DNA of 64,000 nt from Raillietiella orientalis (Eukaryota): contig JAYWIR010000060.1 of NCBI GenBank assembly GCA_036172245.1, positions 558,001 through 622,000 on the forward strand, read 5' to 3'. Below, piece by piece: positions 1 to 64,000 of the stretch; within the stretch, counting starts at the first letter, position 1, and every line of letters begins with the position of its first letter. The notes below the pieces were generated by a model. It made no database searches. It was not told the DNA's origin and worked only from the letters and a program-made list of their open reading frames with translations. Both the position numbers and the translations under genes were made by a program.

Positions 1-1358
1 GTTCCGACGCTGGAGCGGATGGAGCTTCTGCAGCTCTGGTTCCGGACTGTTGCCCTAGCAATTGCGGAGCACCACCTGGTGCCATCCTGCGCGCCTCCTC
101 GTGGAGCAGGGTCCACAGGTAGCACGGGACTCGCGCCCTTCCTTGCGCGCCATCGCCCTCGCAGCCTCCCATACTGCGGACTGCAGCTCCGGAGGGTGGC
201 CACGCTCTACAAGATTAACATGGGATGGACCTCCTGCCATCCCACACACGGTAGCGCCTAGTTGCGGGTCAACCGTGCGCATGTGGTCAAAGCTCAACGA
301 GTGATTCCCGGTGCAGGCGCAACGTCTGCTGCTGCTCTGTTCCTATAGCAACTGCTCGCTCCAGGAAATCCTGGGATATCACGGGAAGGGAGCATCGGCA
401 GGAAGAACCTCCCTTGCCTCAGCACTGCCCTCTCTGAGGGAACATGTGGATAGAAGATGTCTTGTGGTTAGTTGGGAGGCCAGGAAAAATCCGAAATCTC
501 CTACAGGAATTTTTATTCCTTTTCTTTTATTTATGACTTGGTAAAAGAACGACGGGCCATCCCGAGTAACCCACTCCGAGGACTTTTGCGATGATGCAAA
601 CTACTGGGTATTCCTGAGGAAGACCAGCAGTGGTCCCTGGTGATCTTGGACACCCGCATCCTCCCCTTGAAGTGGCAGGAGTCGGTGCTGCAGTTGCAGC
701 ACTGGGGTCTCTCGTGCGACGTCCGCCGTCATCGCTGGACACGGGTGATGGTGGTGCACCCGAACTGTGGCAAATGTGGAGAGCGCGAATTCCTCCCGTA
801 CTTGCTTGTGGGACTGTGCTGCTCCCCGGTCCCTTCAGGAACGCTTCGCCGCGATCCTGGGAACCCCCAGAGGCAGCCCCAGGGACGCTTTCAAACCATT
901 CCTCGTTTGTGACGCCCTCCGGCCGGCAGCCTCGCCAGCAGCTCTCTGCTGCCTACGTGGGATCGTCGCTGCTTGGAGCGATACGAAAGGAGGACCAATC
1001 GACAGGGATGCCACATCCAGTTCGCCGTTCGCTTCATGAGGATGGCAACGAGATGGCCCTCCTGGAGCACTGCATGAAGCAAGCGCTTGCCGGAATTTTC
1101 CGAAGGATGCGGAAAATTGTCCCCAGCTGGACGTGACCTCTTCCTGCACCTCCACCCCCACCCAGAGTTGATTTATTGATTTTATTTTTACTTCTTTTTG
1201 TTTGTCCTCCTCACCTCTGCTGCCGTGGCGTAACTCGCCGGTCTGCAAACCGTTCACCTGGCAGGCTTCCGTTGCAATGGGCGCTGTTGGTCCAACCACA
1301 ATCTGCTAAAAATGTGTACATTTATTTCAATAAACGACCCGAAGTACCCGGGAGAGAA
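1..1358 (+). mobile_element. E1: decayed 3' end of a Tx1/L1-like non-LTR retrotransposon (ORF2 C-terminus + 3' UTR)
   Basis: Frameshifted pieces LELLQLWFR, LPLKWQES..LHWGL, CGKCGEREFLPYLL, RDALRPAASPAALCCLRGIVAAWS match the ORF2 C-terminus of E8/E13. The 3' UTR has the family hairpin (1239-1252) and AATAAACG..CCCG/CGGG (1329-1352). Confidence 0.9.
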
Positions 1359-3838
1359 GCTGGGATTCGGATTCGCGGGAAGATGCCTTGTTCTGGTCAT
1401 CGGTCAGAGACGACGCTGCGACGCTTCCCGGCTTGCCCTGACACTGAATCTTGGAAAAATCTGGGGGATGAGGGGGCAGGGAGGTGGAACTCACGTGCGC
1501 CGACGTGCGCGGAAAGCGTTCCATCTTCCGCCTTTGGATCCAGGGCGGTAGTCACGTCACGAATCAAACGGGCGCCGTCGCGCCTGCCCTCGTTCGTGAA
1601 GGAACGAAGCATAAAAAAAGGGAAGGAGGGGAGGGGGAATCGGATCCGGGGAACTCTTCTGCGACGCCGTCATCCGAACTCGCTGGAGGCCAGCTGCCGA
1701 CCGGCCACGCAAGCCCGAGGAAGCAGAAGCGCTCTCGGAGCCGACTCACGGACGCCGGCCAACGCCCCCCTCGCCGACCTTCCTTTCCGCAGTTCCGGGC
1801 GCGGTAGATAAGAGCAGACAGAGCATCCTCCGGATCATTGACATGCGAGCTTCCGAAGCAGCACGGAGGAGGGCCTCTTGCCATTTTATGCTGCGGACGT
1901 GAAGAGAGGGGGGGGGGGGGCGAAATTGCGCAACGGCTCCGAGGCGCCACCAGCCGGTCTTCCGGTGAGCCAAAGACATTTCTCGCGAGGGGACTGCAGT
2001 TCATTTCGCCCCGCAGAGGGAAGACCTTCCGAACCGCGGGCAGCCGAGGACGGCATTGGTCCTGTCGCTAAGCGACGGGCACGGAGGAGAGACGCCCGCT
2101 CTCGGTGCCACTTTCCGCGGGAGCCGGCAGAAGGGGGAAGGCACCCGACTGCCCCCAATTTTTCAGCGGCCTGCGGGCAACCCCATAACTGCTGCGCAGG
2201 TCCCGGGGAGCAACCCGCTTCTCGATCGGAGATCGCCGGAAGGATTGTGAGTCTCGGGGATGCGAGAAGTGGATGGGGGGGGGGAGAATTTCCGATCGAC
2301 CACCAACGCGTGCACAGACTGCTCCCTGCTGCTTCCGCTTCTCCACCGCCGGAAGGGACGTTGCACTGGAGCGGCGGGCCCCCGAGAGGGCCCACGGGAC
2401 GTTTATCCCAGCCCGTGCCCAACCCAGGTCAGGAGATTTCCCTTCTTCCCGAGAGCTGCTTGACCCACCATCCCTGCAAGGACTTTCCATCGGAGCGTGC
2501 GAAACTCTCTCCCCCACCTGCTTGCCCACCTGACTGTAGTTCTCCCACGCACTCCCTCCCAGCATGCCTTAGAGCGTCTTTTACTTGCTCGGGAGCTTCC
2601 AGGAGCGGCACGATGCGAGCCGATGACTCCTTCCTGGCTGTCGGCGGTCACCCTCGTCAAGCTGCACCACGCTCTTTTTGCCCTCTGCGGGGCAAAAAGA
2701 GCTGCCCCTTTGGATGGCCAGAAGACGCCTCTGGTTGACCGGAGGGCCGGCTGCCAGGCAGCAGTCGACTGGTAGGCTGAGAAGTTGACGTCCCGCTTCC
2801 GGAAAACTTCAGGACTCTGCCCGGAGGATCAGCCAGTTGCTGTCCCCCGACCCATGCGCGAGCTCGACGAGTGCGCCTCCGACCGCCACCCTCTCACCCA
2901 TTCACCCGGGAGGGCACGCAGTGGTGAGACCCTCGGCCTCCGTCACGCCCCTACGAGCCGGACCGCCTTCCAGAGTCCCTCGCGTCCCCCTCATCGCTTC
3001 GGCCACGCCGGGGTTTCCACGGGCCTTGGATCGGCTGCTGAAGCAGCGGCGTCACCTATGACAACAATTCCAAGAAGTCCGGACGCCGCGAGAGGTTGGC
3101 CCGTTCCTCGGCCCTCCCGTCGCGGCACGGCCCTTCTCTGGAGAGGGAACGGCCTTGAGGAAGAGCAGCTCTCGCGCGTGCGTTCTGTCCTCAAGAGCGG
3201 GAATTTCCCCATTCGCCCTTGCGGGAGAAGGGGGAGAGCGGAGCAGGATTTTCGCCGCTCCCCGGGTGAGCTTCGCGTCGAGGTGCGAGGGCAGCGGACC
3301 GGTACGTGGCACACAAGTAGCCGGTCGCCGGAGGGAGGCGTCCGCTCCGATGGCCCCGCGACGCACTCACGCCAATCCGCGGTCCACCCCAAGCGGGCGA
3401 GGCCAAGGATGGGAGCGCCTGAGGGATTCCAGTGGTGGTCCGGGCAAGCGCCCCCCGGAGCGATGGCGAAGAAGAATGGCGGCGGGGAAGGGTAGCGTTT
3501 CTTTGAGGGAGGGCGTCGGCGAAGCTGGCGCAGTGGAAGGGATTGTGACCCGGAGGGGCGGGGCGCAGGGCTCCGAGCTCATTAGGAATGGGGTCGACAA
3601 CGCAAAGAGGAAACGCCCTTCTAGCCTAGAGTTCCGGGGTCTGTGCGACGGAATGGGGGGGGGGAATACAATAAAACAAAAGAAGAGGGAAAGAGGAGGA
3701 GTGCGGTCTACTTCAGGCTCCGATAACGGGAAGATGGACCAGTCGGGATCATCGTCCGAGTTGCCTTTTTGTCCCCGGAGGAACGCGCTGGCACGCCGCC
3801 TGATCTGATTGGCTGTTGAGTTTGCGACCCTGCCGCCA

Positions 3839-24060: not shown

Positions 24061-24990
24061 TTCACACCCGGGTGAGCCGGGGCGTTTATTTTTGCAAAAA
24101 AAACAAACAAGCATGTGTAGGGTCATTGCTCTTACAGCGTCCGATAGAAACTCTGAACTTGCCGAGTAGCCAGCGCGCAGGTCGGCGAGTTCGACTCTGC
24201 AGCAAAGGGGGAAGGGACAAATAGGAACAAAAAAAAAAACACTATTTAAAAAAGCAGGGAGAAATTGGGGAAGGGATCACGTTCCGCTAAGGTCGTCCTC
24301 TACATCCTTTCGAGGATTCCGGCAAGTTCAGCCCGCATACGTCCCAGATGGGACCATCCGGCTGCAGTCCTCAGGAAGCGCAGGGAGGAGCAGATGGCGT
24401 CCCTATCGTTCGGTCCACCAGTGGCGTTGCTCCAGGCCGCCACAATATCTCGTGGGCTGCAGAGGGCTCCAAGAACCGCAGCAGGCGAAAGGGCGTCGAG
24501 CACAAAGAGGCGCTTCAATACGTCTCTGGGGTTGTTCATGAATGCTCCTAGGGTTGTTGCAAAACGCAACCGCAGAGGTCGGAGGGCAACACAGTCAAGA
24601 ATCAGGTCCGGAAGTGATTCCTGCTCCCCGCATTTGACAAAGTTTGGGTCCAAATGGAGAACATGGGGAGCAGCAGCAGAAGATCGTCCGCATACGACGC
24701 TACGGCCGGTGTACCTGGGCACACGCGCGGCTGGCTACCAAGAGTCTCCCTGTACGCCCTCAGCACCAGCTCGAAAAAGGTTCTGAAAAGCAAGGGACTC
24801 AAGCTGTTGCCCTGACGTGTCTCGCGGCGCATCGGCACATCGAACAGGTTTCATCCGCTGAAACAGAAATTGGTCAGCGCGTCGCGCCAGAAAGAGCTCA
24901 GAAAGGCCATTAAAAAGGCCAAAAATCGCAAGCGCTCTAAAGCTCCAGCAGGAGCTTCTGGTCTACGCAGTCGAGCGATTTGCTCTGCAC
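24061..24990 (-). mobile_element. E3: 5'-truncated, internally deleted Tx1-like element (E8-like)
   Basis: RQGNSLSPLLF..YADDLLLLLPM joined directly to DPNFVKCGEQESLPDL; 3' UTR with family hairpins; 3' end abuts E2. Confidence 0.85.
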
Positions 24991-26866: not shown

Positions 26867-26869
26867 CGC

Positions 26870-40916: not shown

Positions 40917-41015
40917 TTTTTCTATAAAAATACAAAATTTACATTCGCACTCTCATTCACTCAAGACAAACATTTTGTAGTTGGGGGTCCTTGGGTTGCA
41001 CTAGAGTTCTGCTTT

Positions 41016-46314: not shown

Positions 46315-47178
46315 TCATCTTCTAGGTGCCTGCATCCTGGCAGCTGGTCTTGCTGCACGGGACCACTGCAGGTCTTTTGCCGCGATCTCCTCGCCGCTTC
46401 TTTTTTTTGTTTCTTCTGGAAAACTTCCCCTCTCCGGGCACACACGAGCACAATGAACTGATTAAGTTGTCAAGCGCAGAATACTTTGAGCCGCGGAGCA
46501 AGTTCACCGACTCGGCAGGAGAGGAGGGATCTGCCGACTGTCAAGAAGGTGACTGCGTTGCCGCCTTTTAAAGGCGTAGGGAAAGCAACGCCCCCAAGAG
46601 AACGCAGCGAAAATCCCGGAGGTTTCCGCAACTACTGCCGCGGAAGCCTCCAAAAATCGCGAAGGCGTATAAAAGGTTGTGAAGAGGAGGAAAGAAAAAT
46701 CCCCAAGAAAAGCTCCGCAACCTCCATCCCTGAGCTCTTCCAAAGGAAAAAGCAGTCGCGGGAATACGAAAACACGCGCGGCTTGTGCCTCTTCCAAGGA
46801 AAAAGCCAGCGCCTTTAACGCGTGCAAGTCCGCTTCTGTGACCGCCGAGAAGAATATTCCGGTGCGATCGGACGGATACAAACGCACGTCGATCGTGCGA
46901 GCATCAGACTTCGCAAAGGAGTCCGATAGCGCCGCTGAACGACGCGTTTCTCGCGCGGAAGCGAGCGCCCGCAGGGCGGAAGCCCTGAGGCGTGACACAC
47001 TCGCCGCGGAACGGCGAGTGCTCTCCCCGGAACCCACAGGTTCTGCACCCGGGGAGGAGCACCCAATTACGTGCAGCACAGTTGAGGCCGGTGCCGACCA
47101 CGCCCTCCAGCCCGTCGTGCTGCTTACTGCCCGCTCGCCGGGTGAGGCGAACACCACGGCCTCGCTTTCCCAGCCGTG

Positions 47179-50100
47179 ATGAGGGCAATCGCGTCTTCTT
47201 GTCGTGTTGCCGTAACGTCTTGGAACGTCAACGGGCTACAACACGAGGAGAAGAGGCGACTAGTGGCTGACGCTCTGCGCGCCTTCGACTTGACGCTCCT
47301 GCGGGAGATTCACAGCATCTCCGGAGAGCAGGCTGCCGAAATCGAACGGCGCGCGGGCGGAACGCTACTTTATAGGTGCGGCGTTGCACGTACGTGCGGC
47401 GTCGCTTTCCTCGTGCGAGGAACTTTGGCGGGAGCGGTGCGCAGCGTTCGTTTCGACACGGAAGGCCGAGTGGGACAGCTTGTACTCAAGTGGTAACCAA
47501 CGTGTACCCGCCGAGCGGTGCTGGACGATGGGCCGAAAGGATTGAGTTCTTCGGTACCCTTCAAAGCCAGTGGCTCACTCGATCTCACCCTACTGTGGCC
47601 CATCTCATTGCGGGGGACTTTAACGTCCACCTGCTTTCCGAGAATAGATCCCACAAAAGGGAAAAGTTGCTAGCGGAAGAAATGTGCGCGTCCGTGCACG
47701 CGTGCAACTTGTTCGCTAGCGACCCTGTTATGGCAGCAACGCCGGACCACGTATACCTTGATGAACACTTGCTCTGTCGAGTGGGTCGGAGAGGTCCCGT
47801 GCCGTCCGTGCTTTCAGACCATAACAGGCTCGAGTTCGAGTTGCTCCCGCCAGGCAAGGGGCCTCCAAACTGTTTTTGGAGGATGCCGGCAGACTGGCTA
47901 AGCCACCCGGAGGCGGCTGAGCATCTTCGCCAGTACCTCCTCGGCTTTGCCATAAATGAGCTCGACGACTGGGACGATCTGAAAAGATCGGTCCGGGAGT
48001 TCTGCTGCCGGTTTCCCTTGCACCAGCTTCCGCGCGGCTTCGGAGAGGGCGTAGCCAACAGCAGAGATTTTCTGCAGGCCCGCTCCTTTTCCAGGCGCGC
48101 GGACGTTGGTCGATTATCCCAGTACAAGGCCAAGGCCGAGCGCCAGGTCTGGCAGTCAGGGGCGACAGTTCTGCTCGACGACCAGGACCGGGAATGCTCG
48201 GCTCCAGCCGACGTGCGACGGATAGTCAGGCGCTATTACTCTTCTCTGTATGCAGAGGCACCGACGGAACGCAGCCTCTCCCGGCTGCTTCTGCCGATTG
48301 ATGCACCTGTTGTAGACGAGGAGGAACGCGCGCGTCTTGATGAGCCCTTCACGGCCGAGGAAATTTCCTCGGCTACTCGGGGCTCAAGAGACGAAAAGCG
48401 CCAGGCGAAGATGGGCTTCCCGCGGAATTCTTTCAGTGTTTTGCGGCGGAGCTCATCCCCCTGGTGCTCCAACTCTCGTCGCTGATGCGAGACTCGGGCG
48501 ATGTCCCCGCCTCGTTTCGCTCAGCGAAGGTGCGTCTACTGCCGAAAGGCGGAGATTTGCGCCAACTGAACAACTGGCGTCCGATCACATTAGTGAATTC
48601 GGACGTCAAGTTGTTCTCGAAACTTTGGGTGGCGCGGATGGGTAGGATCGCGGAATCCTTGGTAAGTCCGGAGCAGATGTACGCTGTTCCTGGGCGGACC
48701 ATGGACGGGAATCTCTTGTTCATCCGCACATGGCTGCAATTGCAGCATCGTGTGGCGGTGGATCGTCGTGCGTAAGAGACGCCTTCCATCTCTCACCGAC
48801 GGAGGCGCGGGACGCAAAGGGAGACACCGGGAGCCTTGGCGGTTGCAGTCGATCTGCACAAAGCTTTCGATTGCGTGAACCAAAAGCTTCTTCTTGAGCT
48901 TTTGGAACGTCTGGGTCTTCCGGCATCCCTGTTGGCGTACTTGCGCTAATGCTGGCGCCACGCGATTACATCCATTGTTTTCAGTGGCTGTCGCGTGTAC
49001 GGCGTGCCGGTACGACGAGGAATTAGGCAGGGTGACAGCTTAAGCCCGCTGCTCTTCAGCATCTATTTTGAATTGGTGCTGGAGGCTTACAGGTTGACGC
49101 TAGCCAACCTGCCGAGCTCCTGTCCAGGTACGCCGGCCGTGGCAGCCTATGCCGACGACCTGCTTCTTCTGTTGCCCATGTCCACCCCGGCGACATCGCT
49201 TGAAGACTTCTTTGAGTTGATTCGTCGCGGTGCGGGCGTGAGCGTTAACAGGAGTAAGTGTATGGTTGTTCCGGTGGGTGCGACGTGGGAGGAGCAGTCC
49301 GACTGGATCGACCTGGGGATCCCCACGGGCAGGTACCTCAGGTACCTTGGCGTGCCGTTGGGCGACTTCTGCATCTCAGAAGCGTGGTCGGACTGCCTTC
49401 GGAAGGCAGAGCGTGCACTTATCCCGTTTTCAGGAGGCGAGTTCGTCTTGCCGGAACAGGCCTGCATCTGGAACACCTTCGTTGCCCCCCTCCTCCGCCC
49501 CCTGTTTTTTGTTGGTCAACCCCCTCAGGAAGTCAAAGTCTGGGCGCAGCGTTTTCTACGCAAAGCGTTGTGGGGCGCTGAAAGATCCCGTGTTAGACTT
49601 AAAGACTTGGTGGCGCCGCGTCAGGATGCAGGCTTGGGCATCCTCGACTTAAACAGCATCGAACTGCAGGTGCAGTTTCGCATGCTGCGGCTCTGTGCCA
49701 AGCTGTGGTGTACGCCGTGGTGCTTACCCGCACGCCTTATACTGAGGCGCTGCACGGGAAGCGAGGGACTGCTTTCGTTGCTACCCCACTTTCGGCACAC
49801 CAGAATAGGGTTTGGCTTCCCGCTGAGGCAGCTGTCCTCACTGCTGGAAGCCCCAAGCTGGATCTCCTGCCGCCCCATGAACATTAATGCATGGCGGCAG
49901 GAATCTTTTTCATCGTGGGCAGCTTCCGAAGGAACGCGCCCGGAAGATCTTCGACGCCTGCGACTTCTCCTCAGTCATCAAATGGACGAAGTCATGCAGG
50001 ACAAGAAGTTGTCGGATCGTCTGGCCGCCACACCACTCGCCGCAGCGCTGTCTGCCCTCAGGGCAAGCAACCACGGTTGCCTACCGGCGGAATGGAAGTT

Positions 50101-50728
50101 CTCCTGCAAAATAGCGGAAGTCAGTAAGCTCCTCGGCAGCTGGACGACAAAGGATCTGGTGCAAGTCGCCACTCCTCGGAATTGGGCGAAGGGTCTGCTT
50201 CGGTGGAGCGAACATTTCAGTGTGCCCCCCGTAGAGATAGTGGTTCCCCCCGTTTGTTTGGACAGCTCCGTGTTCCCCCTTAAGTGGAAACAAGATGTGC
50301 TGCTCTTTTTACATTGTGCATTTCACTGTAATAGGCAGCGAAGCATCGTTTCCGGGGGAGCTGCCTTGCCAAACTGTTTAAGGTGCGGAGAGATCGAGTC
50401 TTTTCCGCACCTTTTGCTGGACTGCGGTGACCTCCGGGAACTGTGGCGAAGGCTCACTTCGGCCATCATGCCACAAGGAGGCACTGCCATTGATGTGCTG
50501 CGGCGCTTCTTCAGCAGAAATGGACTTTCGGTTAGCGCGATTGATGCAACCATGTGTTGCGTTCGCGCCATCGTGAAGGCCCGCTACGCCCTGGAGTTGT
50601 CATCGCAGCGAAGGGAGGCTCACCTGCTTGCAGCTCAATTCATGGAGAAGGCTTCAAGGTGGTCTCATCTTCGTGACAAGGTGAATCAGGACATCACCGG
50701 CATACATCGCCGGTTTACACACCTTTGA
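47179..50728 (+). pseudogene. E10 ORF2 (APE + RT + zinc finger), frameshifted
   Basis: VTSWNVNG, AGDFN, SDH, NWRPITL, QGDSLSP, YADDL and CLRCGEIESFPHLLLDC spread over ORFs 47176, 47376, 48464 and 48995. Confidence 0.93.
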
Positions 50729-51082
50729 GAACGGCGTAATCCGGTGACCCCTGCGACCTCTCGCCCACCCATACCCCGTCCCCGTTCGCTCGGTAAAATT
50801 TCCGGTGCCCATGCTTTTATCCGCGTGTCTTCCAGAGCGATCCCAAAGACCCTTATCCCGTCCTCCTTATTCATTGTTTTTATTTTATTTTGGTTTCGTT
50901 GTGTTTCCCACCCCCCCCACACCGTTCAAGAAACTGTTACTCTGGCCTGCGTGCCAGCAATATTCTCTTCATTCTTGTTCAGTTGTCGGTTAGGAGTTTG
51001 GTTCCCAACTGGTTTATTTTGTATAATTGCTTTTTTTCGTTATGTTATATGGAATAAACGCCCCGGCGTCACCGGGTGAGAA

Positions 51083-52977
51083 ATCTCCCGGGCTTGATCT
51101 GCGGAGATCACGTGGATCTCCTGCAGCAGCACCAGGTCGAAGGATGCCAGGGTGGCGGCCACTTCACGCCTCTTGCCGTCGTCGCTTAGCCCGTTCACGT
51201 CACAACAGGCGATCAGAAGACGACGGCGAGAGGCGATTCCCGGCATTATGGCTGGGAAAGTGGCGTCGCGGCACCTGCCGCGGGGCAGGTGTAGGACAGG
51301 TCCATCGGTACGAGGACATAGGCCTCTTCAGGCGCCTGGGGTACCTGTTCGGCCTCCATCCTCACCATCCCCTCCGTGTCCGAGCGTGGAATTCTCTCGG
51401 GCGACGGGTCCCGGGAGTTTCCCACGCTCATGGCACCCTCGCTACCGGAAGCCATCTCTTCCCCTTCGTCGGGGGAGACGATCTTCCGGGCATTGTGGAC
51501 TTTCGTCCTTCCTTTTTGCGGGGTGCCGCGGAGATGGATGCTGTGTTTCCGGCCTTCACCTCGGGGTCGGAAGTGGCCGACTCCTGAGGCGAAGCCGGAC
51601 GCCTGACGGCCTTCTTGCCAGCCTTGGGGGCAACCGGCTGCAACGAGGCAGCCAGCTCCTCCGCGGCGCGCTCAAAGGCGACGTCATCGAGCGTGGGCTC
51701 GATGACGCACGCCACCGCCTCGCTCCACTCCTTGTTGACTTTGTCAACGGAGGGTTGAGCAGGGGCAGCAGGGAGTTCTTTAGCGCCGCATTCGTCGATG
51801 GCGGGGGTCGTCCGCTTGCAACGACACGCTTGGCTTTTACGTTGTATCGCGGCGCAGAGCGGATTCGCTCCGTTTCGCCACGTTCTTTCCCTTCTTATGG
51901 GAGTTTTTCTTGGGGTCGACCTTCTGCCATTCTGGCTCTTGACCCTCGCCCTCGACCTTTCCGGCGTCTTTCGCCGAAGTCTCGGGGCTGGCCTTCGCCT
52001 TGGTGGCGGAGGTGACCTCCGTAGCAGCAGCACGAGCTGCCAGCTTCTTTCTCTTTTTTGCCGCGCGCTTTCTCGCGTTTTTCGCGGACACGACGCGGAC
52101 TGTGTTTTGTGGGCACACCAGACGGGTGTGCCCCGCTTGTTTGCATTGCTGGCACTGCACGCTCGGACACGTTATTTTGCGGTGACCAAAGCTGCTGCAG
52201 CAGCCGCAAAACTTGGGTTTCCCCACGTACCACACGTCAACGGATTCACCGTTGACGGTGAGTTTGTGGGGAAACTCACATCCCTCGCGAACCGTCACTC
52301 GAGCTGCTCCCAGGCCGCCAAGCACCCCGTCGTAATCGACAAAAGGAGTAGGCTTTCCTTACAGCGCGTGGACAGTTGCGAATTTTTCCAATTCGTTCCG
52401 GACGGCCTCCTTCGTCATCCGGAACGTGATACCGGTGAGGTGAATGATCTCCGACCGATCTTCAGTAATAGGAAGAAGCCTCCGGCTGCCCATAATTACG
52501 GGAGTTCGCAGAAGTCTTTGCGCAAGAGTTGCCTCCTTGCACATAACTTCCACAAATTGACCCCCGCTTCTGACGGACATAGCCAGAAGCTCCTCTTTCT
52601 GTACGCCAAGAACGCGCATCGCCTGTGAGAAGGCGCGCGCGTTCTCGGGAGAATATAGACCGCCAACCTTATATAGAAGGGGTGGGTTATACCCCTCCTC
52701 CAGGTAAGCGCGCATTTCCACCATAGCCGCTGGCGTAGGTGCCGCAGCCACGGCGTTCCAAGCCCTAGGTAGTGCCGGGGGCGCATCCGTGCTGGCGGGA
52801 GCCTCCACTGATGCGGGAGCCCCCACCTCCATCTCCTCTGGGGGCAATAAGGTCATCGCCCCCGGATCCTCACCGGTGGTGGTATCAGGCATTGCTACCT
52901 AATCCTCCACCCACACCACGCACAAGCACCAACGGAAATGAAACTCAAGAGCAACGAAAAGACACGTCCGCTCGACG
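51083..52977 (-). mobile_element. E9 (5' piece): 5' UTR, disrupted ORF1 (52892-51246) and ORF2 start
   Basis: MPDTTTGEDPG.. near-identical to E12 ORF1, with a stop at 52359; TAATG overlap at 51246; ORF2 cut at ISADQAREI. Confidence 0.93.
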
Positions 52978-53205
52978 CTCCGGAATCTCCATTGAAACCC
53001 GGGTGCGCCGGGACGTTTATTCTAACGAATAAACTTATACAATCTGTGACTGGACCAGTAGTCCAGCCACGCCCTGGAAAGATATAGCCTGCCGGGCTAC
53101 CAGTGCGCAGACCGGCGCGGTCGACCTCGGCAGCAGAGGGGAGGGGGAACGAAACAAAAAGAAAACAAAAAAATAAACAAAAATCAGGGAGGGAGCGGGA
53201 AAGGA

Positions 53206-56200
53206 TCACAGTCTGCTGGGAGGGCCCGTCATCCTCTGGAGGATGCCGGCAAGCTGTTTCTGCTTGTGTGGTTCCAGATGGGGCCATCGCGTCGCCATCC
53301 TGAGGAAACGGGCGGCATACACGTTGGCATCCCTGTCGCTGGATCCTCCCGTCGCTTTGCTCCATGCCACGACGATCCCGCGTAGGCAGCACAGGGCTGC
53401 AAGCGAGGCCACTGGAGGCAGGGCGTCACGGACGAAAAGGGGGCGCAAGGTGTCTCTGGGGTTGCCTTCGGGGATCCCCAGGGCTGCGGCAAAGCGTTTC
53501 CACAAGGGACGGAGGGCAACCCAATCCACTAACAGGTGGGGGAGGTATTCCCTCTCCCCGCACCTGACACAATTAGGGTTGACAGCCCCCCGCGTGCAGT
53601 GGTGTCGGCGGGCGTTGCAAGGAAGCCCCAAATTCAACACCAGCAGTGCCGACTGTTCCCACTTCATGGGGAGGGTGCGCGAGTCCATGAGCACCGGGGG
53701 CCACTCGAGATGTTCCTCTGGAAGATCCAGTAGCTCTTGCCAGCGCGACAGTCCATTTGGGGTGGTCCTCGGGGTAGCATCGTTGGTGAGCTGATCCGTT
53801 CTCCAATCCCCGATCTTCTTTGCCCTGCTGGCGATCTTGACAGTAACCTCCCATTGTGCCGTGACGTCGCTGCCCAGATGTCATCGTAGGGTAGGCAGTA
53901 CCGCAGCAAGGGAGTTTTTTTGTGCCAACGCTCTCCTTCGGGGATACTCGATTTCTCGGAGCGTGCGGTGGGCATGCGGCCCAAACAGAGCTGTTCGCTC
54001 GTGTTGCGGGCTCTGCTCCTGAATCATCGCCCACGTACGGACGGTTTCCTGCAACCAGGCAGGACCGTTCGCGAAGCGTACGAGAATCCGCGCCGAGTTG
54101 TTCTTCACGAGCTTGGCCGCCCTCCGAAGATGAAGTCAGCAGTGGCAGATGGGGCTTCGGAGTGCAAAGTAGGACGACAGTCCCGCATTGCCATTGGCCC
54201 GCTCGAAGAGAAGATGTGCAGGGAGGCACCAAGAGTGCACCAATTTTCTGCCATAAAGGCAACAACTCGGAACTGGAGCTGTAGCTCCAGCCGCTCCAAC
54301 GTCAGGAGGCCCAGACCACTATCCCGAAGAGGAGCGCACAAGTCCGAAAGACGGACTCGGGGCCGCCCTCTGTCCCAATGGGCCATCCTCAGGAGGTCCT
54401 TCGTCCTCTTCTTTGACTCCGCTAAGGGGGAACAAACAAAAAGCAAGGGGCGAAGGAGGGAGGCCGCAAACGCGTTTCACGCCGCGGCCCGTTTCTGCAG
54501 GTAGCACCTGCCGTCCTGGAACGGGCCGATCGCCGCCTGAGACTTCTGAAGGCAGCCCGACCACGCTTCCGCAGGGGAGTAGTCCCCCAACGGCACACCC
54601 AGTTACTTGAAGTACCTCACCGTGGGGATCCCCAAACGGACCCAATCCTGCTGCCCTGCCCACGCCGCTCCGACTGGCATTACGGACGACTTCGCCCTGT
54701 TCACCGTCAGTCCTGTTCCCCGACTCAGCAGGTCGAAGAACTCCTCGACCGCCGCAGCCGGGGTGGACATAGGCAGCAGCAGCAGAAGGTCGTCCGCGTA
54801 CGCCGAAACCGCAGGCGTACCGGGACAGTCGCACGGCAGGTGCGCCAGAGTCTCCCTGTACGCTCTCAGCACCAATTCGAAATAGGCGCTGGAGAGCAAG
54901 GGGCTGAGGCTGTCTCCCTGCCGTATGCCGCGTCGCACCGGTACGCCGTACACGGTGGATCCACTAAAAAAAACATTAATAAGCGCGTCGCGCCAGCTGG
55001 AGCGCAGGTAGGCCAGCATAGAGGCCGGGAAGCCCAAGCGTTCCAGAAGCTCCAAAAGGAGATTCTGGTCGACGCAATCGAATGCTTCATGCAAATCGAC
55101 TGCGACCGCGAGGGCTACTCTCCCCTCCCGAGCATCCCGTCCCCCACCGACGGACGCACCGGAATTACGGTTGCCTATTATGCTCCTTCCTTGTTGGAGC
55201 TCTAACCATGTGGAAGCGTGGAACAGGTTCGCCTCCATACTTCGCCCGGGAACAGCATATGTCTGTTCCGAGCTGATGAAGATGTTGGCGACCCGTCCCA
55301 GGCGCTCTGCCCACAGCTTGGCTAGCAACTTGGCGTCCGCATTCACTGTTGTGATGAGACGCCATTTGTTCATGCTCCTTAGGTCTCCTCCCTTCGGGAG
55401 GAGCCGCACCTTTGCTGAACGAAACGAGGTGGGAACGTCACCTGTTTCACGGATCAGCAAGGTGAGCTGATGTACCAGGGGAGTAAGCTCAGCCGCGAAA
55501 GTTTGGTAAAACTCCGCGGGCAGGCCGTCCTCCCCTGGAGCCTTCCGCCTCTTGAGCTTTCCGCTGGCCGAGAGGATCTCGTCCATCGTGAAAGGCTCGT
55601 CGAGGCTTCTTTTCTCCTCCTCCCCGATCGCTGGAGCACCTTCCGGAAGCAGAAGTCGTGAGACGTCTCGCTCCGGAGGCGCCCTGGCGTACAGGGAGGA
55701 GTAAAATTTTCTTACTATCCCGCGTTTCTGAGCGGGAACCGAGTGCTCCCGGCCCTGGTCGTCCAGCAAGCTGGCCGATCCGGATTGCCAGGCTTGCCTC
55801 TCGGCTCCCGCTCGGTACTCTGCTAACCTGCGCATGTCGGGGGTTCTCGCGTAACGTCGGGCCTGAAGATAGCACCTTTCGTTACGCGGCCCCTCCCCAA
55901 AACCCGCAGGTAGGCGATGCAGGGGGAACTGATCGCAGAACTCCTGGACCGACCGCTTGAAGCGGTCCCAGTCCTGAAGTGTCTGCATCCTGAAGCTTCG
56001 AATAAACGCGCGGAGGTGCTCCGCCGCGTCGGGAAACTTCAGCCAGTCCCCTGGCAGACGCCACGCTGACGAGGGGGGGCCCTTGTCGCGCAAACGCACT
56101 TCGAACATGATCCGACCATGGTCCGACAGCTCGGATGGTACCTTGCCGCGCCTGCCCACCCGAGAGCATAGGTGCTGATCAAGGTTACATGATCGATGCT

Positions 56201-56779
56201 GCTTACCATGGCCGTGTCCCCGGCCAACAAGTTGCACGTCATTTCATTTCTGCGCACAACTCGTTGACGCGGTCGTTCGGTGTAACCGGCGCGCCCCTGA
56301 AAGCGGAGGCGCAGGTTGAAATCTTGCGGTCAACTGCGTGCCATTGCATCGGTCAGCCAATCGCGTCTCCGGACAAGGTAGAACTCCCTTCTTGCCTTCG
56401 CCCTCAACGCGGCGTTTCCGCTAGGAGCGTATAGGTTGGTGACGACCAGGTCGATAGAGTCGGACCAGCTGAGAGTCAGCTGACCGACGCGACCTCAGTC
56501 ATCGCACCGAACGTCCTTTATTGCGGTCTCTATGGCTGGCCTAAGCAGGAAGGCGACACCGCTTGATTTCGCGGTGCCGCAACGCCACAACAGCCGTCCA
56601 CCGGAGATCCGTTCGATATCCCGGACTTCATCTGCGGAGATCACGTGGATCCCCTGCAGCAGCACCAGGTAGAAGGATGCCAGAGTGGCGGCCACGTCAC
56701 GCATCTTGCCGTCGTCGCTTAGCCCGTTCACGTTCCAACAGGCGATCAGAAGACGACGGCGAGAGGCGATTCCCGGCAT
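53206..56779 (-). pseudogene. E12 ORF2 (APE + RT + zinc finger), disrupted
   Basis: ORFs 56495..56779, 54603..56237 (QGDSLSP, YADD), 54105..54446 and 53206..53694 (CVRCGEREYLPHLL). Confidence 0.92.
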
Positions 56780-58437
56780 TATGGCTGGGAAAGTGGCGTC
56801 GCGGCACCTGCCGCGGGGCAGGTGTAGGAAAGGTCCATCGGTACGAGGACCATCGGAACGAGGACGGAGGCCTCTTCAGGCGCCTGGGGTACCTGTTCGG
56901 CCTCCATCCTCACCATCCCCTCCGTGTCCGAGCGTGGAATTCTCTCGGGCGACGGGTCCCGGGAGTTTCTCACGCTCATGGCACCCTCGCTACCGGAAGC
57001 CATCTCTTCCCCTTCGTCGGGGGAGACGATCTTCCGGGGCATTGTGGACTTTCGTCCTGCCTTTTTGCGGGGTGCCGCGGAGATGGATGCTGTTTTTCCG
57101 GCCTTCACCTCGGGGTCGGAAGTGGCCGACTCCTGAGGGGAAGCCGGACGCCTGACGGCCTTCTTGCCAGCCTTGGGGGCAACCGGCTGCAGCGAGGCAG
57201 CCAGCTCCTCCGCGGCGCGCTCGAAGGCGACGTCATCGAGCGTGGGCTCGATGACGGACGCCGCCGCCTCGCTCCCCTCCTTGTTGACTTTGTCAACGGA
57301 GGGCTGAGCAGGGGCAGCAGCGAGTTCTTTAGCGCCGCATCCGTCGATGGCGGGAATCCGCTCTACAACGACGCAGCAGCTTTTAATTTTTTCGCGGCGC
57401 AGAGCGGTTTCGCTCCGTTTCGCCACGTTCTTTCCCTTCTTATGGGAGTTTTTCTTGGGGTCGACCTTGTGCCACCCTGGCTCTTGAACCTCGCCCTCGA
57501 CCTTTTCGGCGTTTTTCGCCGAAGTCTCGGGGCTGGCCTTCGCCTTGGTGACGGAGGTGACTCCCTTAGCAGCAGCACGAGCTGCCAGCTTCTTCCTTTT
57601 TTTAGCCGCGCGCTTTCTCGCGTTTTTCGCGGACACGACGCGGACTGTGTTTTGTGGGCACACCAGACGGGTGTGCCCCGCTTGTTTGCATTGCTGGCAC
57701 TGCACGCTCGGACACCTCATTTTAAGGTGACCAAAGCTGCTGCAGCAGCCGCAAAACTTGGGTTTCCCCACGTACCACACGTCAACGGATTCACCGTTGA
57801 CGGTGAGTTTGTGGGGAATCTCACATCCCTCGCGAACCGTCACTCGCGCTGCACCCAGGCCGCCAAGCAACCCGTCGTAATCGACAAAAGGAGTAGGCTT
57901 GCCCCACAGCGCGTGGACAGTTGCGAATTTTCCAAATTCGTTCCGGACGGCCTCCTTCGTCATCCGGAACGTGATACCGGTCAGGTGAATGTTCACCGAC
58001 CGGTCTTCTGTTATTGGGAGAAGCCTCCGGCTGCCCATACTTACGGGGGTTCGCCGAAGTCTCTGCGCAAGAGTTGCCTCCTTGCAGATAACTTCCACAA
58101 ATTGACCCCCGCTTCTGACGGACATAGCCAGAAGCTCCTCTTTTTGTACACCGAGAGCGCGCATCGCCTGCGAAAAGGCGCGCGCGTTCTCGGGAGAATA
58201 TAAACCGCCTACCTTATATAGAAGGGGTGGGTTATACCCCTCCTCCAGGTAAGCGCGCATTTCCGCCATAGCCGCTGGCGTAGGTGCCGCAGCCACGGCG
58301 TTCCAAGCCCTGGGTAGGGCCGGGGGCGCATCCGTGCTGGCGGGAGCCTCCACTGATGCGGGAGCCCCCACCTCCATCTCCTCCGGGGGCAATGAGGTCA
58401 TCACTCCCGGATCCTCACCGGTGGTGGTATCAGGCAT
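56779..58437 (-). CDS. E12 ORF1: intact gag-like protein (552 aa)
   Basis: Open frame with RRM-like region and knuckles CGCCSSFGHLKMRC, CQQCKQAGHTRLVC; its TAA overlaps the ORF2 ATG. Confidence 0.95.
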   Translation of the reverse strand: MPDTTTGEDPGVMTSLPPEEMEVGAPASVEAPASTDAPPALPRAWNAVAAAPTPAAMAEMRAYLEEGYNPPLLYKVGGLYSPENARAFSQAMRALGVQKEELLAMSVRSGGQFVEVICKEATLAQRLRRTPVSMGSRRLLPITEDRSVNIHLTGITFRMTKEAVRNEFGKFATVHALWGKPTPFVDYDGLLGGLGAARVTVREGCEIPHKLTVNGESVDVWYVGKPKFCGCCSSFGHLKMRCPSVQCQQCKQAGHTRLVCPQNTVRVVSAKNARKRAAKKRKKLAARAAAKGVTSVTKAKASPETSAKNAEKVEGEVQEPGWHKVDPKKNSHKKGKNVAKRSETALRREKIKSCCVVVERIPAIDGCGAKELAAAPAQPSVDKVNKEGSEAAASVIEPTLDDVAFERAAEELAASLQPVAPKAGKKAVRRPASPQESATSDPEVKAGKTASISAAPRKKAGRKSTMPRKIVSPDEGEEMASGSEGAMSVRNSRDPSPERIPRSDTEGMVRMEAEQVPQAPEEASVLVPMVLVPMDLSYTCPAAGAATPLSQP

Positions 58438-58522
58438 TGCTGCCTAATCCTCCACCCACACCACGCACAAGCACCAACGGAAATGGAACTCAGGAGCAAC
58501 GAAAAGACACGTTCGCTCGACG

Positions 58523-61500
58523 CTCCGGAATCTCCAAGACTGGGACCTTTTTAAGGAATCGGTCTGGGAGTTCTGCGAGCAGTTCCCCCTGGACCGCCTG
58601 CCCGCCGGATTCGGCGAGGGTCCTCGCAACCATCGGGCCTATTTACAGGCCCGTAGGTACGAGCGAACCTCTAATGTCCGTCGCCTCGCCGAGTACCGAG
58701 CCGGGGCCGAACTCCAAGCCTGGCAATCCGGGTCGGCCAGCTTGCTGGCCGACCAGGGCCGGGAATGTTCGTCCCCGGCGTCGGTACGGCATCTCGTGCG
58801 GAGTTTTTATTCCTCCCTTTACGCCAGGGAGCCCCCGGATCAAAACGCCTCTAAGCGCTTGCTTCCGGATGGCGCCCCGGCAATAGGGGTGGAGGAGATG
58901 GAAAGCCTCGACGAGCCTTTCACCACCGGCGAAATTCTCGTCGGTATCAAAAGGCTGAAGAGGCGTAAAGCTCCAGGGGAAGACGGCTTGCCCGCGGAGT
59001 TGTTTCAGAGCTTCGCGGAAGAGCTGGCACCCCTGCTGCTTAAGTTGATCAGGCTGATCTGAGAGTAAGGCGATGTTCTCGCCTCGTTTCGTTCAGCGAG
59101 AGTGAGGCTCCTTCCGAGAGGGGGAGACCTCAGGGATTTAAAGAACTGGCGTCCGATCACGATCCTGAATACGGACGTTAAGTTGATAGCAGGGCTATGC
59201 ACTTCGCCTCTGGGGCAGGTGGCAGAACCCGTAATTAGCCCGGAGCAGACTTATGCTGTTCCCGGGCGAAGTATGGATGCCAACCTATTGTTCGCAAGCA
59301 CATGGGTGCACCTGCAGAGAAGAGAAAAGAAAGGGATAGGGAAAGTCGGCAACCCCACATTGGGGCAACCAGCCGGGCTGGGAAAGGAACCCCGGGCGGG
59401 GAAGGGGGCCCTAGCGCTCGCAGTCGACCTCCACAAGGCGTTCGACTGTGTAGACCAGGAACTCCTCTTGGAGCTCCTGGGTCGCTTGGGCTTCCCACCG
59501 TCCCTGATTTCCTACCTGTGCTCTTGCTGGCGGAAAGCGATGATTACCGTCTCTTTCAGCAGTCAAAAGGTGTATGGCGTGCCGGTGCGGCGGGGCATAA
59601 GGCAGGGAGATAGCCTCAGCCCGTTGCTCTTCAGCACCTACTTTGAGTTGGTGCTAAGAGCGTACAGGGTGACTTTGGCCCCATTGCCGAGCTCGTGCCC
59701 CGGCACGCCCGCCGTAGCAGCGTACGCCGAGGATCTGCTTTTGTTGCCAATGTCAACCCCGGCGAAGGCGGTCGGAGACTTCTTCGATCTGCTCAGCCGC
59801 GGAACCGGACTGCAGTTTAACAGGGCGAAGTCGTCGGTTGTGCCAATAGGTGCGGAGTGGGCAGAACAGCAGGACTGGGTCCGTCCGGGGATCCCCACGG
59901 CGAGTTGCTTCAAGTACCTTGGTGTGCCGTTGGGGGACTACTCCCCTGCGGAAGCGTGGTCCAGCTGCCTCCAAAAAGTCGAGACGGCAATCGGCCCGTT
60001 CCTGGAAGGCAAGTATCACCTGCCGGAACGGGCCGCGGTTTGGAACGCCTTCGCGGCCCCCATCCTCCGCCCCTTGCTTTTTGTTTGCCCCCCCACCGTG
60101 GAATCCAAGAAGAGGACGAAGGACCTCCTCCGTATCGCCCTTTGGGGCAAGGGGAGGCCCCGAGTCTCACTGAAGGACTTGTGCGCTCCGCGTCGGGACG
60201 ACGGTCTTGGCCTCCTGACGCTGGAGCGCGTGGAGAAGCAGCTGCGGTGGCGAACCCTCGCCATCGCAGCGAAGTTGTGGAGCACCCCTTGGTGCACTCC
60301 GGCCCGCCTTCTGGCCAGCCGTGTGTCACGGTGCGATGGACTCGCGTCTTTTCTTCTGAGCCGTGGCCGGAAGATGCGAAGATGCGGCCTACTGCTCGGG
60401 CGCATGGCAACATTGGCCAAGGAGAACAGCTGGATGGTTTGCTGCCCCGCCAACTCCCCCGCCTGGCTGCAGGAGAATATTGGAACGTGGGCAGTAGTTA
60501 ACCGGAAAAGCCACGAGACGTGGAATCGTCTCCGATGCAGCCCCTACGCCCGCTGCACGCTGCGGAATCTCCTGGAGAGTCCAGCAAGATGCACGTGGGC
60601 AGAGACGACCTGCCTAGCTACGGCGCTGCCTTTCCTAAGGAGGGCACTTCACAGCACCCGGACGCCAAGGTGGCAAGTCTCCTGTTGCATCGAGGGACGC
60701 GAGAAGTTGGTCAGCGGCTGGACAACAGGAGAACTGGCCGACGCCACGACCCTGAGCGTCCAGCCGCGAGGATTATAAAGAAGGGGCGAGCTGCTCGCCA
60801 TCCCCATGGATGAGCTGAAGTGGCCCCCGATGATGAAAGAATTTAGGATCCTGCCCCTAAAGTGGCAAGAGTCGGCGTTGCTTTTGTTGCACTGGGGTCT
60901 ACCCTGCAACGCGCGCCGCTTCCACTGGACGAGGGGAGCTGTGGATCCTGCGTGTGCCAGGTGCGGGGAGCGGGAGTCGCTTCCCCACCTTATTGTGGAT
61001 TGTGCTGCCCTCCGACTCCTTTGGGAACGGTTCGGGACGACCCTCGGGCTCCCTACAGGCAGCACCCCCAGAGTCGTTCTTCAACCCCTCTTCGTGAAGG
61101 ACGCACTGCAACCAGCCGCAGCCATCGCAGCCTTGTGCTGCGTCCGTGGCATCGTGGCGGCATGGAGCGACGCCAACAACGAAGGAGTGGGTCCAAAGGT
61201 GAGGGATGTCATCCCATACGCCCAACGCTTCATGCGGAGAGCTGCCGGATGGCCGCAACTGTGGTATATCCGGACGAACCTCGAGGGCTTCCTTCAACGG
61301 ATGGGCCCTCCTCACAGCGTTTTGTGATCCCTTCTCTGCCCTCCAACTTCTTTTTGTCTGTTAATTTTTTATTTTTCTTTTTGTTTTATCCCCATCCCCC
61401 TTCGCTGCTGAGGAACGCTACGCTGGGCTGCGTCCCGCCGTCCTGGCAGGTACAGTGTATATGGCCGTGAGCAGGGCCTTGTACCGCGGATCTAGAGTTT

Positions 61501-61534
61501 TACCAATAGACGCCCCGGGCGTACCCGGGTGTAA
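58523..61534 (+). mobile_element. E13: Tx1-like ORF2 from linker to end + 3' UTR (host of E9/E12)
   Basis: Starts LRNLQDWDLFK; PGEDGLP, NWRPITILN, QGDSLSP, YAED, CARCGERESLPHL; ORF2 ends 61327; terminus AATAGACGCCCCGGGCGTACCCGGGTG. Confidence 0.93.
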
Positions 61535-62081: not shown

Positions 62082-64000
62082 TTCTCGCCTGTCACGCAGG
62101 GGCGTTCATTCCATATAACATAAACAAAAAAACAATTCTACAAAATAAACCAGCTGGGAACCGAACTCCCATCCAACGACTCAACAAGAATGAAGAGAAT
62201 ATTGCTGGCACGCAGGCCAGAGTAACAATTTTGCGAACGGTGTAGGGGGGGCAGGGAACACAAAGAAACCAAAATAAAATAAAAACAATGAATAAGGAGG
62301 AAGGAATAAGGGTCTTTGGAATCGCTCTGGAAGACACGGGGATAGAAGCATGGGCACCGGAAATTTTACCGAGCGTACGGGGACGGGGTATGGGTGGGCG
62401 AGAGGTCGCAGGGGTCACCGGATTACGCCGTTCTCAAAGGTTTTTAAACCGGCGATGTATGCCGGTGATGTCCTCATTCACCTTGTCACGAAGATGAGAC
62501 CACCTTGAAGCTTTCTCCATGAATTGAGCTGCAAGCAGGTGAGCCTCCCTTCGCTGCGCTGACAACTTCAGGGCGTAGCGGGCCTTCACGATGGCGCGAA
62601 CGCAACACATGGTTGCGACAATCGCGCTAACCGAAAGTCCATTTCTGCTGAAGAAGCGCCGCAGCACATCAATGGCAGTGCCTCCTTGTGGCATGATGGC
62701 CGAAGTGAGCCTTCGCCACAGTTCCCGGAGGTCACCGCAGTCCAGCAAAAGGTGCGGAAAAGACTCGATCTATCCGCACCTTAAACAGTTTGGCAAGGCA
62801 GCTCCCCCGGAAACGATGCTTCGCTGCCTATTACAGTGTAATGCACAATGTAAAAACAGCAGCACATCTTGTTTCCACTTTAGGGGGAACACGGAGCTGT
62901 CCAAACAAACGGGGGGAACCACTATCTCTACGGGGGGCACACTGAAATGTTCGCTCCACCGAAGCAGACCCTTCGCCCGATTCCGAGGAGTGGCGACTTG
63001 CACCAGATCCTTTGTCGTCCAGCTGCCGAGTAGCTTACTGACTCCCGCTATTTTGCAGGAGAACTTCCATTCCGCCGGTAGGCAACCGTCGTTGCTTGCC
63101 CTGAGGGCAGACAGCGCTGCGGCGAGTGGTGTGGCGGCCAGACGATCCGACAACTTCTTGTCCTGCATGACTTCGTCCATTTGATGACTGAGGAGAAGTC
63201 GCAGGCGTCGAAGATGTTCCAAGCGCGTTCCTTCGGAAGCTGCCCACGATGAAAAAGATTCCTGCCGCCATGCATCTATGTTCATGGGGCGGCATGAGAT
63301 CCAGCTTTGGGCTTCCAGCAGTGAGGACAGCTGCCTCAGCGGGAAGCCAAACCCTATTCTGGTGTGCCGAAAGTGGGGTAGCAACGAAAGCAGTCCCTCG
63401 CTTCCCGTGCAGCGCCTCAGGATAAGGCGTGCGGGTAAGCACCACGGCGTACACCACAGCTTGGCACAGAGCCGCAGCATGCGGAACTGCACCTGCAGTT
63501 CGATGCTGTTTAAGTCGAGGATGCCCAAGCCTGCATCCTGACGCGGCGCCACGAAATCTGTAAGTCTAACACGGGATCTTGCAGCGCCCCACAACGCTTT
63601 GCGTAGAAGACGCTGCGCCCAGACTTTGACTTCCTGGTAGGGTGGACAAACAAAAAACAGGGGGCGGAGGAGGGGGGCAACGAAGGTGTTCCAGATGTAG
63701 GCCCGTTCCGGCAAGACGAACTCGCCTCCTGAAAACGGGACAAGTGCACGTTCTGCCTTCCGAAGGCAGTCCGACCACGCTTCTATGATGCAGATGTCGC
63801 CCAACGGCACGCCAAGGTACCTGAGGTACCTGCCCGTGGGGATCCCCAGGTCGATCCAGTCGGACTGCCCCTCCCACGTCGCACCCACCGGAACAACCAT
63901 ACACTTACTCCTGTTAACGCTCACGCCCGCACCGCGACGAATCAACTCAAAGAAGCCTTCAAGCGATGTCGCCGGGGTGGACATGGGCAACAGGAGAAGC
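62082..64000 (-). mobile_element. E15: E10-family element (3' UTR + ORF2 C-terminal half), runs off the window
   Basis: ORF 62770..63990 is about 95% identical (by eye) to E10 ORF 48995..50728; same 3' UTR. Confidence 0.95.

Follow-up and report, generated by a model that had tools for sequence, protein, structure and literature searches.

A CUGCGY-loop hairpin with covarying stems in the 3' untranslated regions of nested L1-like LINEs from Raillietiella orientalis

Introduction

To our knowledge, how the reverse transcriptase (RT) of a long interspersed nuclear element (LINE) chooses its template is well understood for few elements, namely the L2-clade tails, R2 and mammalian L1 with its poly(A). 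In zebrafish L2, the region of ORF2p between the endonuclease (EN) and RT domains is described as binding the cognate 3' stem-loop, the stem in a general manner and the loop specifically (PMC4176376), and the eel element UnaL2 is described as ending in TGTAA repeats (PMC3747384). Within the L1 clade, a plant lineage (maize and sorghum 'monocot 1a') is reported to carry a hairpin at the 3' end whose loop is conserved and whose stem mutations compensate one another, and this lineage, together with the tail shared by Chlamydomonas L1-1_CR and SINEX-3_CR, is there read as stringent-type recognition (PMC3747384). Here we describe a 64,000-nucleotide stretch of Raillietiella orientalis DNA (GCA_036172245.1, contig JAYWIR010000060.1, positions 558,001 to 622,000; hereafter the window) in which nine L1-like LINE copies carry, in their 3' untranslated regions (UTRs), a short hairpin with the loop CUGCGY. 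It is a sense-strand RNA hairpin with a conserved position, an invariant loop and a covarying stem, maintained by selection across several LINE families that have diverged.

The loop and the genomic setting each have a described counterpart. The apical loop CUGUGC of the hepatitis B virus (HBV) epsilon RNA folds as a pseudo-triloop and is suggested to anchor the viral RT (PMC1636360). In a foamy-virus context a UGC triloop variant also formed a pseudo-triloop, a fold that is described as favoured by a G-C closing pair, switched to a plain hexaloop by a C-G closing pair, and marked by a pyrimidine at the 3' residue 6 (PMC3884659). Zepp and Zepp-like L1 LINEs of green algae are reported to form nested insertions into existing copies (PMC8226300), and the GC content of Zepp is given as 61% (PMC3446292).

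Results

A sequence-only reading of the window had listed nine stem-loops and placed them in the 3' UTRs of LINEs. Their sequences, loop coordinates and strands were confirmed (Table 1; copies are named after the loop coordinate), and all nine lie downstream of the C-terminus of an ORF2 (second open reading frame) on the same strand, as mapped by tblastn. The loop had been called constant: it is CTGCGY in eight of the nine copies and its CUGC is invariant throughout, the exception being copy 1243 with CTGCAA. Loop position 6 is U in six copies, C in two and A in one. The nine copies of this single window represent about seven independent lineages, because 50947 and 62210 are near-duplicates (94% alike over the last 680 nt) and 24175 shares 81% of its sequence with 36414.

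The same reading had described the stems as covarying, and the alignment bears this out. In the five-pair stem, here called P2, 41 of 45 cells pair (91%), with changes on both sides at four of the five pairs. The closing pair is CG in four copies, UA in three, AU in one and GC in one, and is unpaired in none. On a tree built from 700 nt of ORF2 with the tail excluded, ((28118,(50947,62210)),(1243,53105,(24175,36414),(25323,61428))), the ten stem columns required 21 parsimony changes. When 21 random changes were placed in a tree-aware simulation, a mean of 27.4 of the 45 cells paired, and the observed 41 was reached in 0 of 20,000 runs. Parsimony changes along the loop numbered 0, 0, 0, 0, 1 and 3 (none in CUGC, one at G5 and three at Y6), against 4 and 4 at the closing pair and 2-5 in neighbouring columns. 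A loop that stays constant between stems that covary therefore points to selection on the structure of the sense-strand RNA. The structure belongs to the sense RNA because P2 contains four wobble cells (GU in three, UG in one), which would become A.C mismatches in the antisense strand.

None of 500 column shuffles of P2 together with the outer stem, P1, matched the observed pairing or covariation score, and RNAalifold, run on the unedited alignment, predicted the CUGCGY, middle and terminal hairpins independently. The CTGCGY hexamer itself is not enriched in the window (116 sites, compared with 99.15 +/- 10.4 in shuffles). Five contiguous flanking pairs were found at five of these 116 sites, where about 1.15 were expected from a background of 0.99%, and all five are LINE tails. 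A conserved 3' UTR stem-loop in which the stem compensates and the loop is conserved is what stringent-type LINEs display.

The near-duplicates 50947 and 62210 allowed tail and coding sequence to be compared at short distance. Their ORF2 sequences are 95-100% identical in 100-nt windows and their tails only 84-87%. Despite the differences between the tails the third hairpin is preserved, and one difference, CCGG/CCGG to CCUG/CAGG, is compensatory within the terminal stem. From the sequences, these tails appear to support constraint during active evolution. Among the sequencing runs listed as holding this sequence, none was of RNA. One public DNA run (X1) contained 34% of the sampled words, and its contigs are short; among the variants listed, two are relevant: 53102 A>G converts the G.U of the 53105 stem to G-C, and 51070 C>G changes the terminal loop of 50947 from CGUCA to CGUGA.

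The CUGCGY hairpin is one part of a larger conserved tail, whose layout was determined from about 600 nt around each site and from tail alignments. In 5' to 3' order it comprises a U-rich run, a CCCCNCCCC tract, the outer stem with the CUGCGY hairpin, a variable hairpin, AAUAAA, a terminal hairpin and URAA. Information content is 1.48 bits per column in the loop, 1.3-1.4 in the block from AAUAAA to the terminal hairpin and 0.4-0.8 between them. The U-rich run followed by CCCCNCCCC occurs in all nine tails (for example 25355-25386, minus strand) and also in a hairpin-less family of the window (40900-40960, minus strand), which makes it the most widely shared 3' UTR feature among these LINEs. 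An outer stem of the CUGCCG/CGGCAG type, noted previously for several copies, encloses P2 in six (1243, 24175, 25323, 36414, 53105 and 61428) and is absent from 28118, 50947 and 62210. Where present it has 8-9 bp with bulges; only 68% of P1 cells pair over all nine copies because the three group B copies lack it. The hairpin between P2 and AAUAAA has a family-specific sequence and is individually significant (z below -2) in three of the nine copies only, and AAUAAA is exact in six copies, within an A/U-rich stretch.

Beyond AAUAAA, at the very 3' end, lies the terminal hairpin, with the consensus CGYCC(C)GG-CGYNA-CCGGGUG. It pairs in 82.5% of cells and shows one counted double change, and is thus conserved in sequence rather than by covariation; by reading, two copies carry compensatory stem variants, CCUG/CAGG in 62210 and CCA/UGG in 36414. 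It is followed by 3-5 nt (UAAA, UGAA, AGAAA, UAAG and others) and then by foreign DNA. The 3' junctions were fixed by means of uninterrupted copies of the targets and target-site duplications, and no poly(A) and no tandem tail repeat was found at the element ends. These elements are true target-primed insertions without poly(A), with flanking target-site duplications that are perfect over 11 and 13 bp. As in stringent-type LINEs, they end with a specific short sequence. The CUGCGY loop precedes the end of the terminal hairpin by 92-126 nt, and the CUGCGY hairpin is thus about 90-130 nt from the 3' end. The terminal hairpin, which like the stem-loops of stringent-type LINEs lies at the 3' terminus and immediately precedes the tail, is therefore a better candidate than the CUGCGY hairpin for setting where reverse transcription starts. 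The sequence-only reading, which had drawn the parallel to L2-type 3' stem-loops, thus identified a real 3' UTR module and gave an incomplete account of it, in that the conserved tail is larger and its terminal hairpin matches the position of the L2-type structure more closely.

Table 1. Features of the hairpin-bearing LINE tails and of the LINE copies discussed in the text. Positions are those of the window; hairpins are written as sense-strand RNA.
Feature	Copy	Position	Strand	Details
P2 hairpin	1243	1239..1252	+	CGGU-CUGCAA-ACCG, variant loop; ORF2 C-terminus upstream at 7-1056
P2 hairpin	24175	24169..24186	-	GCCGAC-CUGCGC-GCUGGC; one A.C mismatch, one G.U
P2 hairpin	25323	25316..25335	-	CGCCGGU-CUGCGU-ACCGGCG; 7 bp; recovered in the minimum-free-energy fold
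P2 hairpin	28118	28112..28129	-	CCCGGA-CUGCGU-UCUGGG; one G.U; group B, no outer stem
P2 hairpin	36414	36407..36427	+	UGGGAGC-CUGCGU-GCUGCCCA; bulged G; 124 nt past ORF2 stop
P2 hairpin	50947	50942..50957	+	CUGGC-CUGCGU-GCCAG; 3' UTR of full-length I50
P2 hairpin	53105	53100..53115	-	CCGGU-CUGCGC-ACUGG; one G.U; 3' UTR of full-length T53
P2 hairpin	61428	61421..61440	+	CGCUGGG-CUGCGU-CCCGCCG; 3 bp perfect, 7 with mismatch
P2 hairpin	62210	62205..62220	-	CUGGC-CUGCGU-GCCAG; close relative of 50947
Nested domain (P1 enclosing P2)	1243	1220..1264	+	
Nested domain	24175	24159..24203	-	
Nested domain	25323	25307..25351	-	CUGCCG../..CGGCAG
Nested domain	36414	36391..36436	+	
Nested domain	53105	53089..53133	-	
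Nested domain	61428	61405..61449	+	
Terminal hairpin	1243	1335..1354	+	degenerate, CGACCCG-AAGUAC-CCGGGAG
Terminal hairpin	24175	24065..24084	-	CGCCCCGG-CUCA-CCCGGGUG; then UGAA, target DNA
Terminal hairpin	25323	25224..25243	-	CGCCCCGG-CGUGA-CCGGGUG
Terminal hairpin	28118	28026..28045	-	CGUCCCGG-CGCAA-CCGGGUA
Terminal hairpin	36414	36514..36533	+	compensatory G-C to A-U (CCA../..UGG); then UAAA; target DNA at 36538
Terminal hairpin	50947	51059..51078	+	CGCCCCGG-CGUCA-CCGGGUG; then AGAAA, 11-bp target-site duplication
Terminal hairpin	53105	52996..53015	-	CGUCCCGG-CGCAC-CCGGGUU; then UCAA, 5' start of next LINE copy
Terminal hairpin	61428	61511..61531	+	CGCCCCGGG-CGUA-CCCGGGUG; then UAAG
Terminal hairpin	62210	62085..62104	-	compensatory CCUG../..CAGG; alignment pair 16-24, UA:1
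Full-length hairpin-bearing LINE	I50	39520..51083	+	ORF1 39636-41141..., ORF2 47170-50704, structured tail; 11-bp target-site duplication TCTCCCGGGCT
Full-length hairpin-bearing LINE	T53	52994..58536	-	ORF1 ~58263-57643, ORF2 56812-53230, tail with P2 53105
Intact related LINE, other family		40885..46504	-	ORF1 588 aa (zf-CCHC), ORF2 1207 aa (APE + RT); nested within I50

The host elements have the two-ORF plan of an L1-like LINE. Long ORFs of the window matched Exo_endo_phos and RVT_1 in Pfam, with zf-RVT below the cut-off, and the zf-CCHC knuckle was found in separate ORFs that correspond to ORF1. An ORF2 with APE endonuclease, RT and a C-terminal Cys-rich motif, accompanied by an ORF1 of RNA-binding type, is characteristic of the L1 superfamily. 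The nearest solved structure to the intact 1207-aa ORF2 was human L1 ORF2p (E 6.8e-51), with R2 proteins at 8.4e-27 or worse. In a large protein database, a 754-aa ORF2 fragment matched one unnamed protein at 73% identity and the other 36 of 37 matches at no more than 31%; those with names were mostly plant L1-like, at about 25-30%.

These LINEs fill roughly 40 kb of the window, from about 23.7 to 64 kb, as copies nested in one another with 65-97% DNA identity (self-comparison and tblastn), and GC content is 55-65% along the whole 64 kb. By reading, the 3' flank is other LINE sequence for eight of the nine tails. Dense clusters in which L1-type LINEs have inserted into each other are what is known as Zepp-like nesting. 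One minus-strand LINE is split by the 11.5-kb I50 into 36538-39518 and 51084-52991. At two head-to-tail junctions (52985-53000 and 61528-61540) the last base of a tail adjoins the start of the next copy, the T53 tail meeting the full 5' end of copy T51 and the tail of copy E61 meeting the 5'-truncated copy T62. In each of two pairs of tails, both members stop at a shared nucleotide position in homologous target LINEs, antisense within the target ORF2 (51078-51095 with 62070-62090, and 36530-36545 with 24055-24070). For 50947 and 62210 the target flanks are 71-76% identical (86% in one window), compared with 95-100% for ORF2 and 84-87% for the tail. This would fit either independent insertion at a preferred site, as described for nesting of the Zepp type in PMC8226300, or an old duplication that was followed by gene conversion.

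Nested within I50 is an intact LINE of another family (40885-46504), whose ORF2 is about 31% identical to the ORF2s of the hairpin-bearing copies. It is flanked by a perfect 13-bp target-site duplication, CCUGCCGAGUCGG (also written CCTGCCGAGTCGG), and is apparently young. Its 3' UTR of about 125 nt keeps the U-run and CCCCACCCC and ends in CCCCACCCCTTGTGGGACTTGGGGAAA. Imperfect tandem repeats at 46034-46245 (periods 27, 36 and 48; 73-79% matches) encode the GC-rich repetitive N-terminal part of its ORF1.

We searched for the hairpin beyond the nine copies with R1, a covariance model that describes the domain by 71 positions and 13 pairs. In the window the nine copies scored 52-73.6 bits, by construction, and no further copy was found, the next best score being 19.6 bits. 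That match (3604-3665, minus strand, E 0.032) has a U-run and poly-C tract and lacks the CUGCGY hairpin, so it was not counted; it may represent the worn 3' UTR of an older LINE. Rfam, which the sequence-only reading had named as a check, returned no match at gathering score in the whole window. At E<=1 there was none in 50700-53300 (tails 50947 and 53105), and in 24000-25500 (tails 24175 and 25323) only one unrelated bacterial sRNA (small RNA) at 18.8 bits. A ribozyme or other known RNA was ruled out on this absence of Rfam matches, and a microRNA-like precursor because the stems are too short and interrupted.

Relatives were also sought in metagenome, viral and prokaryotic contigs, and DNA from a close relative was not found there. 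A C-terminal ORF2 profile had no match in metagenome contigs. An RT-core profile matched 79 loci there, all 23-30% identical, in which the hairpin model gave no credible match, reaching at best 16.6 bits (E 0.74; 383,152 bases). Viral contigs contained no relatives by protein profile and 0 matches to a DNA pattern of the terminal hairpin. This pattern matched 23 prokaryotic contigs without the upstream hairpin (model best 13.2 bits, E 0.6); we regard them as chance matches to a GC-rich 19-base pattern in 596 Gb. Full-text literature searches yielded no report of the CUGCGY motif, and none of an L1-like element whose tail combines two hairpins with the lack of poly(A).

In the left, non-LINE part of the window, none of 106 ORFs at 1.4-23.7 kb matched Pfam. 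It contains two repeats, one direct (about 470 bp, 93% identity; 3839-4305 and 13624-14090) and one inverted (about 440 bp, 97% identity; 8242-8677 and 11987-11550). No tRNA genes were found in the window, and a search with a short spliced-leader motif of dinoflagellates gave 0 matches.

Discussion

We lean towards a stringent-type 3' recognition in which the CUGCGY hairpin, within its multi-part tail, would be read in cis by the element's own protein or proteins. In such a scheme, these proteins would recognise the 3' RNA structures of the RNA that encodes them, and target-primed reverse transcription would start on that RNA without a poly(A) tail. The terminal hairpin would place the RT at the 3' end, and the upstream CUGCGY hairpin would provide sequence-specific recognition through its invariant loop, by ORF2p or by the zinc-knuckle ORF1p, its stem having only to pair. 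A G-N-G that is exposed in a loop is a suitable target for zinc knuckles. For the CUGCGY hairpin we infer binding by an element protein, the choice of that protein and the role in retrotransposition by analogy with stringent-type LINEs. If correct, the tail would be a compact, testable recognition signal. In genome annotation it is a sharp marker of where these families end on the 3' side, and of any short interspersed nuclear elements (SINEs) that borrow it.

Several observations weigh against this interpretation. The intact LINE at 40885-46504 has neither the CUGCGY hairpin nor the CCCGG/CCGGG terminal hairpin, and the hairpin is therefore not required by every member of the LINE group. The outer stem is missing from three of nine copies, and the CUGCGY hairpin stands about 90-130 nt off the 3' end, at a distance from the position next to the tail that known stringent-type stem-loops occupy. 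No SINE-like element borrowing the tail was found in the 64-kb window, where the covariance model retrieved the nine LINE-attached copies only. The copies are few (nine, about seven of them independent) and come from one window. The P1+P2 structure was first derived from the sequences on which it is scored, which favours it over the slid-partner controls (77% of cells paired, compared with 27-43%). The 50-nt domains do not fold with better energy than shuffles (z -1.26 to +0.06), the proposed loop appears in the minimum-free-energy fold of only four of nine copies, and such folds of the whole tail vary among copies.

Some of these points would fit a conserved RNA structure that serves the transcript instead, as a site for a host factor or as a signal that governs 3'-end processing, stability, export or translation of the LINE mRNA; it might, for instance, be an upstream element of AAUAAA. 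The hairpin lies upstream of a conserved AAUAAA, which follows it by about 80-100 nt, its distance from the 3' end is that given above, the flanking U-rich and C-rich tracts are typical of protein-binding UTRs, and the intact related LINE manages without it. Nothing specific indicates a host factor, however, and Rfam gave no match to a regulatory family; nor, since their ends lack poly(A), do the inserted copies show evidence of a role in polyadenylation. We give this explanation a low probability.

An unlikely alternative is that the loop acts by RNA-RNA kissing, its UGCG pairing with the loop of the terminal hairpin (CGCA, CGUA or CGUG), which would compact the tail and present the 3' end. 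By reading, three of nine copies have the perfect complement CGCA in the terminal loop and three more have the wobble-pairable CGUA or CGUG, and the contig variant at 51070 removes the one mismatch of 50947. Both loops are nearly invariant, however, and hence offer no covariation to draw on, four complementary bases in two GC-rich loops arise easily by chance, 24175 (CUCA) and 1243 do not fit, and 50947 fits partly.

A more elaborate version, which we consider improbable, would combine the terminal hairpin with a pseudo-triloop CUGCGY, convergent with the hepadnaviral epsilon loop CUGUGC, into a bipartite signal that replaces poly(A)-dependent priming, the two loops possibly kissing as UGCG:CGCA. 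Were it true, strict self-recognition would fit the building of nests by copies that insert at particular sites in other copies. CUGCGY and CUGUGC differ by one base, with no homology implied. The pseudo-triloop pattern C1-NNN-G5-Y6, here with a UGC triloop, has its C1 and G5 in eight of nine loops, which is a sequence potential only, and residue 6 is a pyrimidine in all but one copy; the closing pair, however, is G-C in one of nine copies and C-G in four, and for this reason the fold is doubtful on sequence grounds.

The reading that the hairpin has no function, its similarity being inherited among related dead copies and its pairing a by-product of GC-rich sequence, is already disfavoured and seems very improbable. 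It could appeal to folding energies that equal those of shuffles and to the small number of copies, some of them close relatives. It does not account for 41 of 45 cells remaining paired through 21 changes when 20,000 tree-aware simulations never did so, for a closing pair that shows all four Watson-Crick types and is never unpaired, or for a CUGC without change beside columns with 2-5. Action at the level of DNA or of an antisense transcript (a protein-binding palindrome or an antisense promoter element) is less likely still, since although the stem is also an inverted repeat in DNA, its four wobble cells become A.C mismatches on the other strand and the asymmetric loop is invariant in one orientation to the ORFs, sense in nine of nine.

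Recognition in cis of a structured tail, the interpretation that we favour, has to be set beside the systems described to date. The nested arrangement resembles that of Zepp clusters, GC-rich L1-type LINEs inserted in LINEs over about 40 kb here, a likeness of arrangement; the Zepp-like type is further marked by a single cluster on each chromosome, at the centromere. The portions of PMC8226300 and PMC3446292 consulted describe no 3' hairpin of Zepp.

The suggestion in the sequence-only reading that such an element might be undescribed for its clade was too strong, as 3' hairpins with a conserved loop and a compensatory stem are reported from the plant L1-clade lineage (PMC3747384). In what is described of 'monocot 1a', a UCU loop flanked by CGAG falls in the final 45 nt of elements that end in poly(A); here the loop is CUGCGY, the hairpin lies further upstream and poly(A) is lacking. 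The plant and Chlamydomonas system has a known partner SINE, and none was seen in the 64-kb window.

The L2-clade LINEs (eel UnaL2, zebrafish ZfL2-1 and ZfL2-2), as described, are alike in having a conserved 3' UTR hairpin with a pairing stem and a specific loop, and no poly(A). Four of the nine copies have UnaL2-like ends, UGURA (UGUAAA, UGUGAA, UGUAAG) or UGAGAAA. The elements of the window differ in that their ORF2 is nearest to L1 ORF2p among solved structures, in the distance of the CUGCGY hairpin from the end, in the presence of a second, terminal hairpin, and in carrying one short URAA in place of tail repeats. An L1-like group with two conserved 3' hairpins and no poly(A) would add a case for stringent recognition being ancestral or recurrent in the L1 superfamily, as proposed in PMC3747384. 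LINE 3' stem-loops with a covarying stem and a fixed loop are a known kind of structure, and the CUGCGY motif is a new case of it.

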